Source: Escherichia coli (GTDB lineage Bacteria > Pseudomonadota > Gammaproteobacteria > Enterobacterales > Enterobacteriaceae). Taken from it: a DNA stretch of 64,000 nt. Position 1 is the first letter of the stretch. The number at the start of each line of letters is the position of its first letter. The stretch lies in assembly GCF_050320075.1 (NCBI RefSeq), contig NZ_CP190018.1; one strand, given 5' to 3'. A program made the position numbers and the translations under genes. The notes below the pieces were generated by a model that did not search any database, was not told the DNA's origin, and worked only from the letters and a program-made list of their open reading frames with translations. Of the stretch, positions 10,459 to 32,484 are shown one piece after another.

Positions 10459-12339
10459 TTAATACTCCGTCACGTTTTCCTGTCGCCACGCCTCGTCATA
10501 TTCCGATTTCGGCATATTGGCGATGTAGCTATATGGCGATCCTGATTCAAGTTGCAGGAACTGGTGCGATTGCTCGTCAAGGAACAACGGGACACCACCT
10601 TCCCAACCTTCGCCGTTACGTTGCTTTTCAAGCATCAAAACAGATGCCGGAGATGCCAGTAGCTGTTCGTCCTTCTCTGACATCCTTTCACCACTCTGAA
10701 CTCTCTGTAACGCTCTCTCGCGAGCCTTGTTACGCCAGATGATGAAAAGGTTGTCTGTCAGGTCTGTTATCGCTCCAGAGCCTTTTACGTCCATTTTCCC
10801 GGTTGGTTTTTCTTCGCTGTCACCTTTTCGCGAGTGAGTAACGAGAATGACGTGGGAGTTTGTTTTGTTTTTGAAATCGCAAATCGAGTCAACAAACGCC
10901 TTCTGCCCGTTATAGTCATCGTCGCCTATGCCACATTTCATCAGGCTGTCGATGATGAATAACTGGATGCCGTATCGGCGGCGAGCGTAGTCGAATATTT
11001 CGATCAGCCTGTCGGCTTTCGCCGTTCCGGTCAGACCAAACACCCAAAGTCTTTCGTCATAAAATTTAAATGCAGAGTCAATTTCCAGCACTGGCGGCAT
11101 CTTGCAGCACGTCGCCTGACGGGTAAGTCGTTTAAGGAGAATGCCTGGCTTCAGCTCAAGTGACGCGATGCACGTCTTCACACCCTGACGCATTGCCTCA
11201 AGTGCCATATGCCCGACAACCTCCGTTTTTCCGTGACCGTTCACACCATTGACCAGCGTCAACTCGGCCTCACGGAACTGGAATTTATCTGCCAGAGATT
11301 CCCACGGTGGATTAAACAGATACTGCTGCTTGCCGTAGAAAGCGTTGATAGTGTCCTGGTAAAACTCTCGCGCGCTGTAGAGTTCTTCAGGATCGAAGTA
11401 GGATGCCGTGCCGATGTACTGCCAGATTTCATCCTCGGTAACACCGTTCATCAGGCATTCGTTGATGTCTTTGTACGGCAGAGTAACAAGACGGCAACGA
11501 TGTTCACCGAGTCGGCTTGCGATTTCCCTTGCGGCTTCACGACCAACATCATCAACGTCCATCGAGATGAATATTTCCTCAAACCTGTCGAGGTTGTGAT
11601 ACTCAAACTCAATCCACTGTTGCTTAGCGCCTTTCCCGCCACCAAACGGCACGGATAACGCCGAGATGCCGTATTGCGCATAGCTCATACAATCAATTTC
11701 GCCTTCGCAAAGTACAACCGCCCTCACGCCAGCGTCCAGAGCCTGCCATCCGAACAGACAAGGTTCGCAATCACCCTCTGCCATAATGACTTTCTTCCCG
11801 TCCGGGCGCTCAGTGCTGATTCGCTTGACCTGCAACAACTCACCATCGCGTTTGTACGGAAGCACCAGTGCATCAAGTTCTCGTTCTCCATTCCACACCT
11901 TGCCGCTGACAACCTCGTAGCGCTTTACGACTTCTGGCGATATGCCACGCGATTGCAGGTACTCAAGATGGGATTCTGTTCTGGTAACGTAGCGGGCGAT
12001 TTTCTTGCGGTCAGGTCTGGAGAATTTCTTCTCACGTTTGGCATCGAAATGGTGATCGTCATCCTTGATTCCGAGAAAGGCTTTCGCTTCCTGCATAGCC
12101 TGATGCAGGTTAATTCCACGACATGCCATCCACAAATCAAGCATGTCACCGCCGTCTCCCTCAGCGAAATCAGCCCATTTTTTCTTGCCGCTAAGGTTGA
12201 CCTTAAGGCTGTTTCCCTTGTCACCGTTGACGTTACCGGCAACCCACTCATGCCCCTCTTTCTTGCCGTTTGGCAACAGGTGCGGAGCCACCCTGTCAAC
12301 CTGCGCCCAAAGCAGGTCGCTAAGTTCACTTGGCGTCAT
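10459..12339 (-). CDS. Bifunctional DNA primase-helicase (Toprim primase + DnaB-family helicase)
   Basis: 626 aa; Toprim-like CEGEIDCMS, Walker A GVNGHGKTE, Walker B LFIIDSL. Confidence 0.8.
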   Translation of the reverse strand: MTPSELSDLLWAQVDRVAPHLLPNGKKEGHEWVAGNVNGDKGNSLKVNLSGKKKWADFAEGDGGDMLDLWMACRGINLHQAMQEAKAFLGIKDDDHHFDAKREKKFSRPDRKKIARYVTRTESHLEYLQSRGISPEVVKRYEVVSGKVWNGERELDALVLPYKRDGELLQVKRISTERPDGKKVIMAEGDCEPCLFGWQALDAGVRAVVLCEGEIDCMSYAQYGISALSVPFGGGKGAKQQWIEFEYHNLDRFEEIFISMDVDDVGREAAREIASRLGEHRCRLVTLPYKDINECLMNGVTEDEIWQYIGTASYFDPEELYSAREFYQDTINAFYGKQQYLFNPPWESLADKFQFREAELTLVNGVNGHGKTEVVGHMALEAMRQGVKTCIASLELKPGILLKRLTRQATCCKMPPVLEIDSAFKFYDERLWVFGLTGTAKADRLIEIFDYARRRYGIQLFIIDSLMKCGIGDDDYNGQKAFVDSICDFKNKTNSHVILVTHSRKGDSEEKPTGKMDVKGSGAITDLTDNLFIIWRNKARERALQRVQSGERMSEKDEQLLASPASVLMLEKQRNGEGWEGGVPLFLDEQSHQFLQLESGSPYSYIANMPKSEYDEAWRQENVTEY

Positions 12340-12446
12340 GATTCCCTCAGATTGAGATTTTTAAACCAGAAATCGACAAACGAAATACTTAACCAGCCGT
12401 GGTTATAACCAGCGACCAGTAGCGATTTGATTTTTGATTTCATGGT

Positions 12447-13307
12447 TCACCTGTCGAAAAACACGTAGCCAGTTTTCGATACGGTGATTGCGGATGGTGG
12501 TTTGGATTGTGGTTGAATGGTTTCTGGCTTTTCGTCGTTCCAGCGCTGACCGTTCAGGTAGCTCGATGGTAACAACCTGTCGAATCCGAACTGCTTACCA
12601 TTCCTGCATGCGATGTCTTCTGCCAGCATCGTGGCAAACTCGCTTGCCGTACCCCTTGTAGTTTTACGCCATTCCCTGAACTGTGTTCTGAATGCCGAAG
12701 CCGCGTTTTTCTTCCCGGCTTTCCGCATGCCTGCACACCAGAATATTTCCTCGAATGCCTTGTCGGTTTCTTCGTGACGGTCAGGTGATTTTTCACACTC
12801 CGTCCGAACACTTTCGGACATAGTGTTTTTATTATTTCTTTTTTCTTTTGTAATAGTTTCTTTTGTGTGTCCCTGTTTTGGTGACAGCGCTGTCACCGTT
12901 TTGGTGACACTTTTTGTCACCAATGCAGTGACATTATCACCAGAGTAGTGACACCCTTCGATTTGCCATTCCTCGATGTTCTTGTTAGGCCCGATTTGCT
13001 GGCCTTCGCGAAGGATTACCTTCATCGCGATAAGCTCATTCTTGGCCTTGTTTACCTTCTGTCTTGGCAGCCTGGTAATTTGAGCTAACTGACTATCAGA
13101 GATGCGATCCATCTTTTTACCGTAGCCGTATGTTTTACGGCATATGGCGTGGGCAACCTTGCTCTGATTTTTCGTTAAATCTGCGCCGATAAGCTCTTCA
13201 TACAGGGCATTTGCAAGACGGGTATAACCATCTTCAACTTCTGCCACACGACGCTCCACAGGCCGTTGTGAAGACCTTAAATGTGTTACGGTTGCAAGAT
13301 TACTCAT
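12447..13307 (-). CDS. Replication initiator with lambda O-like N-terminal DNA-binding domain
   Basis: 286 aa; position after cII; iteron-like repeats inside its coding region. Confidence 0.7.
12850..12960. repeat. Candidate replication origin: iteron cluster with flanking A+T-rich tract inside the O-like gene
   Basis: Repeated GGTGACAGCGCTGTCACC, GGTGACACTTTTTGTCACC, GTGACATTATCACC, GTGACACCC units; adjacent tract ttattatttcttttttcttttgtaatagtttcttttgtgtg. Confidence 0.5.
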
Positions 13308-13439
13308 GACCTTTCTCCTTCTGCATCAGCTTCACTTTTTCCAACTCAGCCCGGAATCGACCAGGCTGCTTGAAGCTGGACAGGAAGCGATCACGTAGTA
13401 TGTGTTTGTGAATTTTGTCCTGGTAAGGACTGAGTTGTT

Positions 13440-13521
13440 TTGTCATAATTACTTCTGTGGATTGATCCAGTCTTTCTACATCAGGCCTCGAAGAATTCGC
13501 CGTTCTTCGGGGCTTTTTCTT
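13440..13521 (+). ncRNA. OOP-like antisense RNA candidate overlapping the 3' end of cII
   Basis: Plus-strand hairpin CGAAGAA-TTCGCCG-TTCTTCG followed by GGGCTTTTTCTTTT inside the last codons of minus-strand cII; promoter not confidently placed. Confidence 0.3.
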
Positions 13522-13762
13522 TTGTCAGGTAATCGGCAAGCCGCTTAGTCAATTCAGCCATTTCATCGTCTTCGATTCCGTATTCCAGAACAGCAAGCAT
13601 CATGCTTACCTGCGAGAAGAAACCATTCTTCCATCGGCTTACCTGATATTCAGGAACCCCCATTGCTCGAGCGAATGTCTTCTGCCCCATCAGTGCCAGT
13701 TTGTTCAGCAAGGCTGACTCGATGCGAGCCGCTTTCTTGCTTTTAGTTGCAATAGTACCCAT
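13481..13762 (-). CDS. cII: CII transcriptional activator
   Basis: 93 aa; [14 protein letters not shown]...SRWK...FSMLLAVLEYG matches lambda CII from memory. Confidence 0.85.
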
Positions 13763-13839
13763 AGATAATTTCCTTAATGATTAGATAGAGTTGGCTTCGC
13801 AAAGAAACGCAAAACCATAGAGATTTGTTTCTGGTAATG

Positions 13840-13871
13840 CCCTTTTTCAGGGCTGTGATGTGTAAGAGCTA
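13840..13871 (-). promoter_or_regulatory. nutR (boxA GCTCTTACACA, boxB GCCCTGAAAAAGGGC)
   Basis: Minus-strand boxA/boxB downstream of cro. Confidence 0.7.
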
Positions 13872-13878
13872 GAATGTC

Positions 13879-14094
13879 TTAAGCGGCTTTGCGTTCCGGC
13901 GGGAACACGTCATCAAGACTGACTTTTGCGCCTAACTTGTTTAGGCACTCAACAAGAGCACGGCATGTTTTAAGGTCTGGGAAGCGACGACCAGATTCCC
14001 AATGTCCGATAGCTCCCTGTGTGCATCCAACTGCCTTAGCAAGTGTTGTTTGAGAGATATTCAGTGACTCTCGATATTTTCGTAGGTTGCTCAT
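13879..14094 (-). CDS. cro: Cro-like HTH repressor
   Basis: 71 aa from ATG 14094 (MSNLRKYRESLNISQTTLAKAVGCTQGAIGHWESG...); ORF track extends further upstream to 14265. Confidence 0.8.
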   Translation of the reverse strand: MSNLRKYRESLNISQTTLAKAVGCTQGAIGHWESGRRFPDLKTCRALVECLNKLGAKVSLDDVFPPERKAA

Positions 14095-14205
14095 ATGCCC
14101 TCCATAGTAACCATGAAACAATAATACGATATGTACTTTTAGAATGCAAACAAAAAATACATCTTGTGCGTGGATGATTTTAGTACAGAGCGTAATAATA
14201 AGGGT

Positions 14206-14865
14206 ATGAAAATGAAATGGTATGAACTGGCTAGATCCAGAATGAAAGAGCTCGGCATAACTCAAGAGAAGTTAGCTGAAGAGCTTGGTATGACGCAGGG
14301 TGGAATTGGTCACTGGTTGCGCGGATCTCGTCATCCATCTCTTGACGAGATTGGTGTGGTGTTTAAATACCTTGGTATTGATAACGTCTCATTCAACCAC
14401 GACGGTACATTTTCACCTGTTGGCGAATACTCATCTGCCCCCGTTAAAAAACAATATGAGTACCCTGTTTTTTCTCATGTTCAGGCCGGGATGTTCTCGC
14501 CTGAGCTTAGAACCTTTACCAAAGGTGATGCGGAGAGATGGGTCAGCACAACCAAAAAAGCCAGTGATTGTGCGTTCTGGCTTGAAGTTGAAGGTAATTC
14601 CATGACCGCGCCAACAGGATCCAAGCCAAGCTTTCCTGACGGGATGTTAATTCTCGTTGACCCTGAGCAGGCTGTTGAGCCAGGTGATTTCTGCATAGCC
14701 AGACTTGGTGGTGACGAGTTTACCTTCAAGAAGCTGATCAGGGATAGCGGGCAGGTGTTCCTACAGCCACTAAACCCGCAATATCCAATGATTCCATGCA
14801 ATGATAGCTGTTCCGTAGTAGGGAAAGTTATCGCCAGCCAGTGGCCTGAAGAGACATTTAGTTAA
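14206..14865 (+). CDS. cI: CI repressor (LexA-like S24 autocleaving); lambda-type C-terminal domain with a different N-terminal DNA-binding domain
   Basis: C-terminal [26 protein letters not shown]...[17 protein letters not shown]... near-identical to lambda CI; N-terminal HTH differs; divergent from cro. Confidence 0.9.
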
Positions 14866-14888
14866 CAGCCTCACAACTCTAAAACACA

Positions 14889-14920
14889 CATCAATAACCC
14901 GACCTTAGCGTCGGGTTTTC
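14889..14920 (+). terminator. Terminator-like hairpin after cI
   Basis: CCCGAC-CTTAGC-GTCGGG followed by TTTTCTTTTT. Confidence 0.5.
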
Positions 14921-14990
14921 TTTTTCCAAAATATAAACCCATTAAATACAAAGCGTTATAAAAAACTAATTATATTTAGAACATTTTGTA

Positions 14991-15019
14991 TTGACTCGAT
15001 AAAGTACAAATCGTACTAT
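14991..15019 (+). promoter_or_regulatory. pL-like promoter (-35 TTGACT, 17 bp, -10 TACTAT) overlapping a palindromic operator candidate AGTACAAATCGTACT
   Basis: Hexamers at 14991-14996 and 15014-15019; palindrome 15003-15017; upstream of nutL and N. Confidence 0.45.
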
Positions 15020-15058
15020 TTAGCCATCAGCAGGACGCACTAACCACCATGAAGGTGA

Positions 15059-15089
15059 TGCTCTTAAAAATTTAGCCCTGAAGAAGGGC
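15059..15089 (+). promoter_or_regulatory. nutL (boxA-like GCTCTTAAAAATT, boxB GCCCTGAAGAAGGGC)
   Basis: boxB at 15075-15089 is identical to the remembered lambda nutL boxB. Confidence 0.7.
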
Positions 15090-15199
15090 AGCATTCAAAG
15101 CAGAAAGCTTTGAGTAGCGCGAAATGCAGCTGCAAGACAGCAACCGTGGAGATAAGCATCACGGCGCGTTACTCAAAGCTAACTGACAGGAGAATCCAG

Positions 15200-15526
15200 A
15201 TGAATGCACAAACACGCCGCCGCGAACGTCGCGCAGAGAAACAGGCTCAATGGAAAGCAGCAAATCCCCTGTTGGTTGGGGTAAGCGCAAAACCAGTTAA
15301 CCGCCCAATTCTCTCGCTGAATCGCAAACCGAAATCACGAGTAGAAAGCGCACTGAATCCGATAGACCTTACGGTGCTGGCTGAATACCACGAACAGATT
15401 GAAAGCAACCTGCAACGTATTGAGCGCAAGAATCAGCGCACATGGTACAGCAAGCCACGCAGTGAAATGGGTGTGACTTGTGTTGGTCGCCAGAAAATGA
15501 AATTAGGCAGCAAACCACTTATTTGA
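15200..15526 (+). CDS. N: Antiterminator N (lambda type)
   Basis: From ATG 15200 preceded by AGGAG; arginine-rich motif MNAQTRRRERRAEKQAQWKAAN; ORF track start 15110 is upstream. Confidence 0.9.
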   Translation: MNAQTRRRERRAEKQAQWKAANPLLVGVSAKPVNRPILSLNRKPKSRVESALNPIDLTVLAEYHEQIESNLQRIERKNQRTWYSKPRSEMGVTCVGRQKMKLGSKPLI

Positions 15527-15534
15527 GGTGAGAT

Positions 15535-15786
15535 ATGGAGTTTCATGAAAGTGCGATTTGTGATTTTCGCGCTAACGCAAATTCAGTAAAACCACAGCCA
15601 ATTGCAGTTCTTTTTAAAACAATGGGGGCGTGGGCTGTTTTATGCTTCGCCGCTGACGACACTGACGCAAGAATGGCAATAGGCCAAGAGATGGAGATGG
15701 ACCCGACAAACGATGAATTCATAATTTATGGCGCTCCATCTAATTACTTACTTGATACCTGCAACATTTACAACAAGGCTGCCTGA
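15535..15786 (+). CDS. Small early protein, possibly Ral-like
   Basis: 83 aa with a good RBS (GAGGTGAG); C-terminal NKAA as in lambda Ral; weak similarity only. Confidence 0.4.
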   Translation: MEFHESAICDFRANANSVKPQPIAVLFKTMGAWAVLCFAADDTDARMAIGQEMEMDPTNDEFIIYGAPSNYLLDTCNIYNKAA

Positions 15787-16012
15787 TGGTGGCCTTTATT
15801 TTTGGCATAAACAACAGAATAAACACTGCACTGTGTATTCATTCCAACGAGTGAATACACGGAGCAATGTCGCTCGTAACTAAACAGGAGCCGACTTGTT
15901 CTGATTATTGGAAATCTTCTTTGCCCTCCAGTGTGGGGGCTTTTTTATATGCATACCAATAACGCTTCACTCGAGGCGTTTTCGTTATGCAATCAAACAG
16001 AAGGAGCATCCT

Positions 16013-32240: not shown

Positions 32241-32484
32241 TATCATTCCATTTATACTCGTCATACTTCAAGTTGCATGTACTGCGACTCGAATTATTTA
32301 GAGTATATAAATATAAAAATCAGGAAATGGCAGACGAATCCAGGGCAAGAAAAAAAGAATTAATCCTGGAAAGGTCTGCAAAGAGTCATTGATAAAGGAT
32401 TTGTCATGATTTACCTCCTTGCAGTTTGTGGAATAAGAAAACGCGCACATACTAGGCGGGCGTTATTTTCATTGCAAGCTGGAT

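Follow-up and report, generated by a model that had tools for sequence, protein, structure and literature searches.

A P22-type pO-oop-tO unit predicted at the 3′ end of a prophage cII gene in Escherichia coli

Gene content of the cII region

The region considered here surrounds the 3′ end of a cII gene in the window, by which we mean the whole 64-kb stretch of Escherichia coli DNA that was analyzed. The encoded activator shares 48–49% identity with lambda CII and P22 C1 and 90% with the BTP1 homolog, and its stop codon lies at 13481–13483 on the minus strand (Table 1). The genes on that strand run in the order cro-like HTH gene, cII, orf48, Phage_rep_O gene, and Toprim/DnaB-like gene. Together with the cI-type repressor, these surroundings are a typical lambdoid immunity and replication module. 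Segment 13250–13800 matches coliphage mEp043 and Shigella phage Sf101 at 99.3% identity and P22-like Salmonella phages, including BTP1, L, and ST64T, at ~87%; compared with the BTP1-group copies, the immunity region of the window is of the mEp043/Sf101 type. Stretch 13400–13560 finds a match in 715 of 5426 complete E. coli genomes, and three of the genome records listed are 100% identical over the full query. At these matches, PGAP lists just the CII and DUF2740 genes.

Table 1 Features at the cII 3′ end and in its vicinity (window coordinates).
Feature	Position	Strand	Evidence or remark
cII/C1-like transcriptional activator, 93 aa (target gene)	13481–13762	−	Pfam Phage_CII, E = 4e-30, residues 5–92
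orf48 (DUF2740), 48 aa	13300–13446	−	Pfam DUF2740, E = 9e-29; P22 orf48 at same position
cI-type repressor (HTH + Peptidase_S24)	14164–14865	+	Immunity module
Predicted pO −35, TGGTAA	13421–13426	+	3/6 consensus matches, weak; 17 bp upstream of −10
Predicted pO extended −10, TGT+CATAAT	13441–13449	+	Same as lambda pO TGTCATAAT
Conserved CTGTGGATTGATCCAG block	13455–13470		CTG-N10-CAG, LexA-box-like; GATC; ATCCACA (other strand), DnaA-box-like
Predicted OOP-like antisense RNA	13457–13523	+	~64–67 nt; 5′ end 13457 or 13460
5′ stem-loop GUGGA...UCUAC, inner 3-bp stem	13457–13479	+	MFE folds; weak in P22-type form
tO-type intrinsic terminator hairpin	13483–13515	+	12–14 pairs, 5-nt loop; terminator scan, folds
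Terminator U-run UUUUUCUUUU	13514–13523	+	Opposite strand encodes K-E-K of cII

Other elements of the module can be recognized around these features. The 5′ codons of cII contain TTGC-TTTTAG-TTGC on the plus strand (13737–13750), facing cI. The motif represents the CII-binding repeat of an establishment promoter of the PRE type and is annotated in mEp043 as a putative CII binding site. Between cro and cII, the minus strand carries GCCCTGAAAAAGGGC (13839–13853), which we take to be identical to the lambda nutR boxB hairpin; if so, a lambda-type N antiterminator would be implied. Just after the cI stop codon, a plus-strand hairpin, AACCCGACC..GGTCGGGTT, is followed by a T-run (14896–14917) and is probably the terminator of the immunity transcript, an analog of timm. 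GGTGACA/TGTCACC motifs repeated at ~12876–12960 within the O-like gene are probably the iterons of the origin, and they most likely also account for ‘terminator-like’ matches at 12879–12898 and 12891–12909 and for weak matches to miRNA families in the Rfam scan. The minus-strand gene at 10459–12339 encodes a 626-aa fused Toprim and DnaB-like protein similar to ES18 gp61, which stands in place of a helicase or loader of the lambda P or P22 gene 12 type.

A terminator hairpin inside the last codons of cII

Read on the minus strand, 13484–13525 encodes the last 14 residues of the cII product, and the plus-strand hairpin and T-run therefore lie inside the last cII codons. A preliminary description of this DNA had noted a plus-strand hairpin and U-run at this place, an observation that the terminator scan, the predicted fold, and the ORF coordinates all confirm. 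The CGAAGAA/TTCTTCG palindrome it named is real, but it forms only the core of a longer stem. The plus strand at 13483–13515 reads AGGCCTCGAAGAAT-TCGCC-GTTCTTCGGGGCTT and continues into TTTTTCTTTT, which ends at 13523; by reading of the sequence, the T-run occupies 13514–13518 and, after an intervening C, 13520–13523. The stem comprises 12 pairs from G13485-C13513 to U13496-G13502, or 14 when A13483-U13515 and G13484-U13514 are counted (G-U pairs included).

The terminator scan of 12400–15000 returned eight terminator-like sites, compared with 2.6 expected from shuffles, and ranked this hairpin as the strongest. A 74-nt RNA covering 13455–13528 folds with a free energy of −27.9 kcal/mol (z = −5.3), a stability reached by none of 200 dinucleotide shuffles. 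Bidirectional termination was also considered for the hairpin and rejected, as no U-run follows it on the minus strand.

A promoter over the orf48 start codon

The predicted pO elements lie immediately upstream, over the beginning of orf48. The −35 hexamer of the window corresponds to the −35 end of a 29-nt ‘promoter oop’ feature in the curated P22 record BK000583 when that feature is mapped onto the window, reading TGGTAA where P22 has TGGTCA. CATAAT occupies 13444–13449, and the TGT of the extended −10 (13441–13443) forms the end of the 17-bp spacer. The first three bases of this hexamer are the reverse complement of the orf48 ATG (13446–13444), so that the −10 element overlaps the start codon; the orf48 Shine-Dalgarno sequence (13452–13456) also falls within the overlap with pO. 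The same arrangement is seen in lambda, where the −10 sequence TGTCATAAT overlaps the start codon of O, the next gene, and at P22 orf48. In lambda, pO is inactivated by mutation of the −10 region (PMC3985674).

A consensus sigma-70 scan does not list pO, which has 8 of 12 matches and falls below the cut-off. This low score explains why the simple scan missed the promoter and why the preliminary description reported no convincing one; a pO can nonetheless be placed at 13421–13449 by homology, on which its position depends. The loci that we fetched provide 14 distinct upstream contexts, with at least five different N-termini of the downstream gene (orf48, HK97 gp53-like, lambda O-like, and others). 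CATAAT is present in 11 of the 14 contexts and is replaced by TATAAT, TAGAAT, or TAAAAT in the other three; TGn occurs in 8, and the −35 region is variable.

The poor −35 element and the failure in the consensus scan could be read to mean that the hairpin merely terminates stray plus-strand transcription from the replication genes, with neither a dedicated promoter nor a regulatory RNA, and all upstream genes on this stretch do lie on the other strand. We consider this reading very improbable. The extended −10 is identical to that of lambda pO, keeps a fixed distance from the hairpin, and is retained in front of unrelated genes, and the reads from P22 begin at a defined position, 11 nt past the −10 hexamer.

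The −35 position has a further peculiarity. CCTGG(T/A)A, which includes a Dcm CCWGG site, coincides exactly with it (13419–13426 in the window) and occurs at the same offset in loci L006, L046, and others. The motif is carried by three small downstream genes without other obvious similarity, namely orf48 (encoding PYQ), an HK97 gp53-like gene (KYQ), and a third gene (KFQ); the lambda counterpart at this position is TTGAGT. Promoter constraint, methylation, or a mosaic-boundary remnant may account for it.

The predicted RNA and its conserved 5′ block

From its position over the orf48 start codon, pO would act as a weak constitutive promoter and start a plus-strand RNA at ~13457. This 5′ end follows from lambda homology and spacing to the −10 element: the 5′ end of lambda oop is presumably GUUGAUAG, and the window start that matches it is G13457. 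A second estimate comes from P22C-oop, a 63-nt RNA detected by small-RNA sequencing that ends in UUUUCUUU (PMC13397905). P22C-oop maps to 32273–32335 of BK000583, between the curated terminator and promoter, and its first 30 nt are identical to 13460–13489 of the window. Because the 5′ end of the P22 reads, equivalent to 13460, lies 3 nt downstream of the lambda-based start, the +1 position is uncertain. With these two starts and the end of the U-run, the RNA would measure ~64–67 nt, which corrects the earlier figure of roughly 80 nt.

Over its first ~24 nt, the RNA is complementary to the stretch between cII and orf48 in the rightward early mRNA, which here runs on the minus strand, and over its last ~42 nt to the cII stop codon and the last 13 cII codons. 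Folding predicts a weak 5′ stem-loop ahead of the terminator hairpin. In its helix 1, four of the five pairs are replaced on both sides among relatives (G-C by A-U, for example).

The CTGTGGATTGATCCAG block, at the 5′ end of the RNA, hardly varies between lambda and the P22-like phages, and the conserved unit of pO −10 and oop 5′ block is present in at least 75 fetched loci. A CTG-N10-CAG motif at 13455–13470 is kept as in lambda; it carries little information and is a putative LexA site judged from sequence. A LexA binding sequence has been described within lambda oop-pO (PMC5869508), and DnaA boxes lie downstream of lambda pO (PMC3985674).

Conservation of this kind raises the question of whether the unit matters mainly as DNA, with the RNA secondary: pO firing would oppose the convergent early-right transcription and tune replication-gene expression and origin activation, and the conserved 33-bp block would serve as a LexA, DnaA, or SeqA (GATC) site and as a recombination boundary between immunity and replication modules. 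CTG-N10-CAG, GATC, and ATCCACA are all conserved, in Sf6 the block bears the annotation ‘bsq5 boundary sequence’, and it sits exactly where unrelated downstream genes join the same cII tail. In lambda, moreover, plasmid copy number falls and read-through from pR increases when pO is inactivated, and replication responds little to additional OOP RNA (PMC3985674). As an account of the locus on its own, we find this reading quite unlikely, because it leaves unexplained both a terminator hairpin with compensatory changes inside cII codons and the discrete RNAs of P22 and BTP1. A role as DNA or promoter is an addition to the antisense RNA more than an alternative to it.

A sequence difference of the window falls right beside this block. 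Over 551 bases, the window and mEp043 differ only at 13274, 13454, 13715, and 13779, and at 13454 the window has T where mEp043 and all other fetched relatives with the conserved block have C (CTCCTG to CTTCTG). For orf48, on the minus strand, the change means a weaker Shine-Dalgarno sequence (AGAAG in place of AGGAG); relative to the predicted oop start on the plus strand, it occupies position −3.

Conservation of the RNA structure among relatives

The 3′ regions of cII were collected from 96 loci in IMG/VR and phage records. The IMG/VR scan with a cII alignment yielded mostly near-identical loci, and the phage collection supplied the diversity. All 18 diverse representatives, from phages of Escherichia, Salmonella, Shigella, Klebsiella, Hafnia, and Edwardsiella, fold into a 5′ stem-loop, a terminator hairpin, and a U-run. 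The terminators of 16 representatives comprise 15 distinct stems, all of which fold, with 8–14 canonical pairs. These stems encode different CII tails, including RPAATERSEQIQMEF, and yet all of them pair.

A covariance model (R1) built from 17 sequences has a single match in the window, at 13444–13526 on the plus strand (102 bits), and recovers lambda-type copies weakly. Since a MAFFT alignment (A3) placed the 3′ arm of the P22 type one column off, pairs were counted in per-sequence folds and in a covariance-model alignment of 30 distinct rows. In the latter, 79% of cells pair, and 12 of the 21 modeled pairs change on both sides, a value reached by none of 500 shuffles. Percent paired, double-changed cells, and covariation score were likewise each reached by 0 of 500 shuffles, and the count of further pair types by 23 of 500, statistics that overstate independence, given that the sequences are related to one another and were aligned by fitting to the model. 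When partners were slid by 1–3 columns, pairing dropped to 42–50%.

These results bear on whether the hairpin could be a chance palindrome in coding sequence, or whether a plus-strand ORF of 48 aa with a GTG start (13402–13548), which does appear in the mechanical ORF list, could be a real gene. Both ideas are scarcely credible, and we reject them: none of the shuffles matched the stability of the fold (z = −5.3), compensatory changes preserve the stem as the CII tail peptide varies, and the stretch differs in length and sequence between the lambda and P22 types, with indels.

A permissive Rfam scan of 12000–16000 found no OOP family and gave only chance-level matches, the best of which fell below threshold (trpB motif, 22 bits against 59; ctRNA_p42d, 19 bits against 50), so that no curated model confirms OOP membership. 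OOP is also unmarked by PGAP and in the mEp043 and Sf101 records, an annotation gap that a covariance model such as R1 could fill.

One relative departs from the common form. Klebsiella phage RCIP0034 (L090) carries at 708–790 on the minus strand an oop-like copy with a strong 14-bp hairpin and an interrupted U-run, AUCUCUUUU; its record annotates cII as ending early. This copy may represent a degenerate or variant terminator.

Proposed function

OOP is a textbook antisense regulator. In lambda, its mechanism has been described (PMC5869508, PMC3985674, PMC2327240), and the likely function of the RNA in the window, by analogy, is antisense pairing followed by RNase III cleavage of cII mRNA, with lysis favored. 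The RNA would pair with the early mRNA, with which its complementarity over cII is perfect by construction; RNase III would cleave the duplex, after which the cII mRNA would decay from its 3′ end. The resulting drop in CII would push the phage toward lytic growth. The evidence that RNase III cleavage lowers cII comes from lambda alone (Krinke and Wulff, as cited by PMC2327240, PMC5869508, PMC3985674), and even there the role of OOP in CII removal after SOS induction is minor at most (PMC2327240). We infer for this host that pO is transcribed and that RNase III acts in the same way, and the RNA ends in Table 1 are likewise predictions.

The C-terminal tail of CII is dispensable for activation and is needed for control by FtsH and OOP (PMC5869508, PMC3349717), and its dispensability fits tail codons that are shaped by the hairpin.

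Two further effects may be envisaged. One is that pO, by firing against the convergent early-right transcripts, may lower expression of the replication genes; in lambda, pO interferes with convergent pR transcription and affects replication (PMC3985674). In addition, the 5′ end of the RNA (13457) adjoins the orf48 Shine-Dalgarno sequence (13452–13456), and orf48 overlaps the start of the O-like gene. Pairing up to the Shine-Dalgarno sequence, combined with this overlap, could thus block translation of orf48 and coupled translation of the initiator. We think it unlikely that the short OOP variant does block orf48 translation and, through translational coupling, the replication initiator; were it so, there would be a direct tie between the lysis-lysogeny switch and replication that is not known from lambda.

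Comparison with lambda and P22-type OOP units

The OOP unit of lambda (pO, 77-nt oop, and tO) separates cII from the replication genes and runs antisense to the cII 3′ end. In the window, the predicted RNA has the same placement, antisense to the cII 3′ end and between cII and the early-right replication genes. As in lambda, two stem-loops are present, and the intrinsic terminator is inside cII codons. On the oop strand, lambda reads TTGAGT-N17-CATAATGACTCCTGTTGATAGATCCAGT and the window TGGTAA-N17-CATAATTACTTCTGTGGATTGATCCAGT; the −35 hexamers differ because the gene under pO is orf48 in the window and not O. Alignment to the lambda oop/pO region, a check that had been named beforehand, finds the similarity expected of an OOP unit: TTTGTCATAAT, ACT, CTGT, GAT, and GATCCAGT are conserved between the two over pO and the 5′ end of oop. 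This shared −10 and 5′ block, together with the matching layout of the curated P22 record, supports the preliminary proposal of an OOP-like antisense RNA.

Differences from lambda lie in the body of the RNA. The window RNA is ~10–13 nt shorter, its weak 5′ stem has 5 bp compared with ~10 bp in lambda, its overlap with cII is ~42 nt compared with 52–55 nt (PMC5869508, PMC3349717), and its terminator sequence is unrelated to lambda tO.

The closest parallels are found among P22-like phages. Record BK000583 places ‘promoter oop; similar to phage lambda’ over the start of P22 orf48 and, covering the end of c1, ‘terminator oop; similar to phage lambda’, and the P22 layout (c1/cII, oop, orf48, O-like gene) is that of the window, with a near-identical −35 region. 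The orf48 found between oop and gene 18 of P22 is missing from lambda (Hayes et al., PMC3349717). The terminator stems of the two differ at several pairs in a compensatory manner, with GAAGAA/UUCUUC in the window and AAAACUG/CAGUCUU in P22, and the encoded 10-residue CII tail, PQDCGNSFEA in P22, differs in the window.

In BTP1, an RNA termed OOP^BTP1 has been annotated from RNA-seq transcriptomes of the prophage (PMC7067206). Stretch 13460–13523 of the window is 100% identical in BTP1 and phage L, and Sf6 and CP-1639 have the same terminator type and CII tail as the window. Copies in BTP1, ST64T, phage L, Sf6, and CP-1639 differ from the window by 1–3 bases just upstream of the RNA body, and the predicted start is GUU in BTP1 and GUG in the window. 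The record of HK633 carries a feature ‘similar to lambda oop mRNA’. Hayes et al. (PMC3349717) reported a conserved pO/oop block of 33 bp and the layout cII-oop-orf-O-P for 23 lambdoid phages, a set that includes CP-1639, ST64T, and Sf6, which carry the terminator type of the window.

Taken together, these comparisons indicate that 13421–13523 on the plus strand is very probably the pO-oop-tO unit of a lambdoid prophage in its P22-type form. All of the features of the OOP family that sequence allows to be checked are found in this unit. The points against the assignment are the poor −35 element (3/6), a 5′ stem-loop much weaker than that of lambda, and an RNase III dependence known from lambda only. 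The importance of the locus beyond annotation is small, given that OOP is a well-known antisense regulator and that the RNA body is the same as copies already aligned, curated, or detected in P22-like phages. What overlaps the end of this lysogeny gene is an ordinary and already described P22-type counterpart of the lambda OOP antisense RNA, and the shorter RNA, weaker 5′ stem, and unrelated terminator that set it apart from lambda are known P22-type features.
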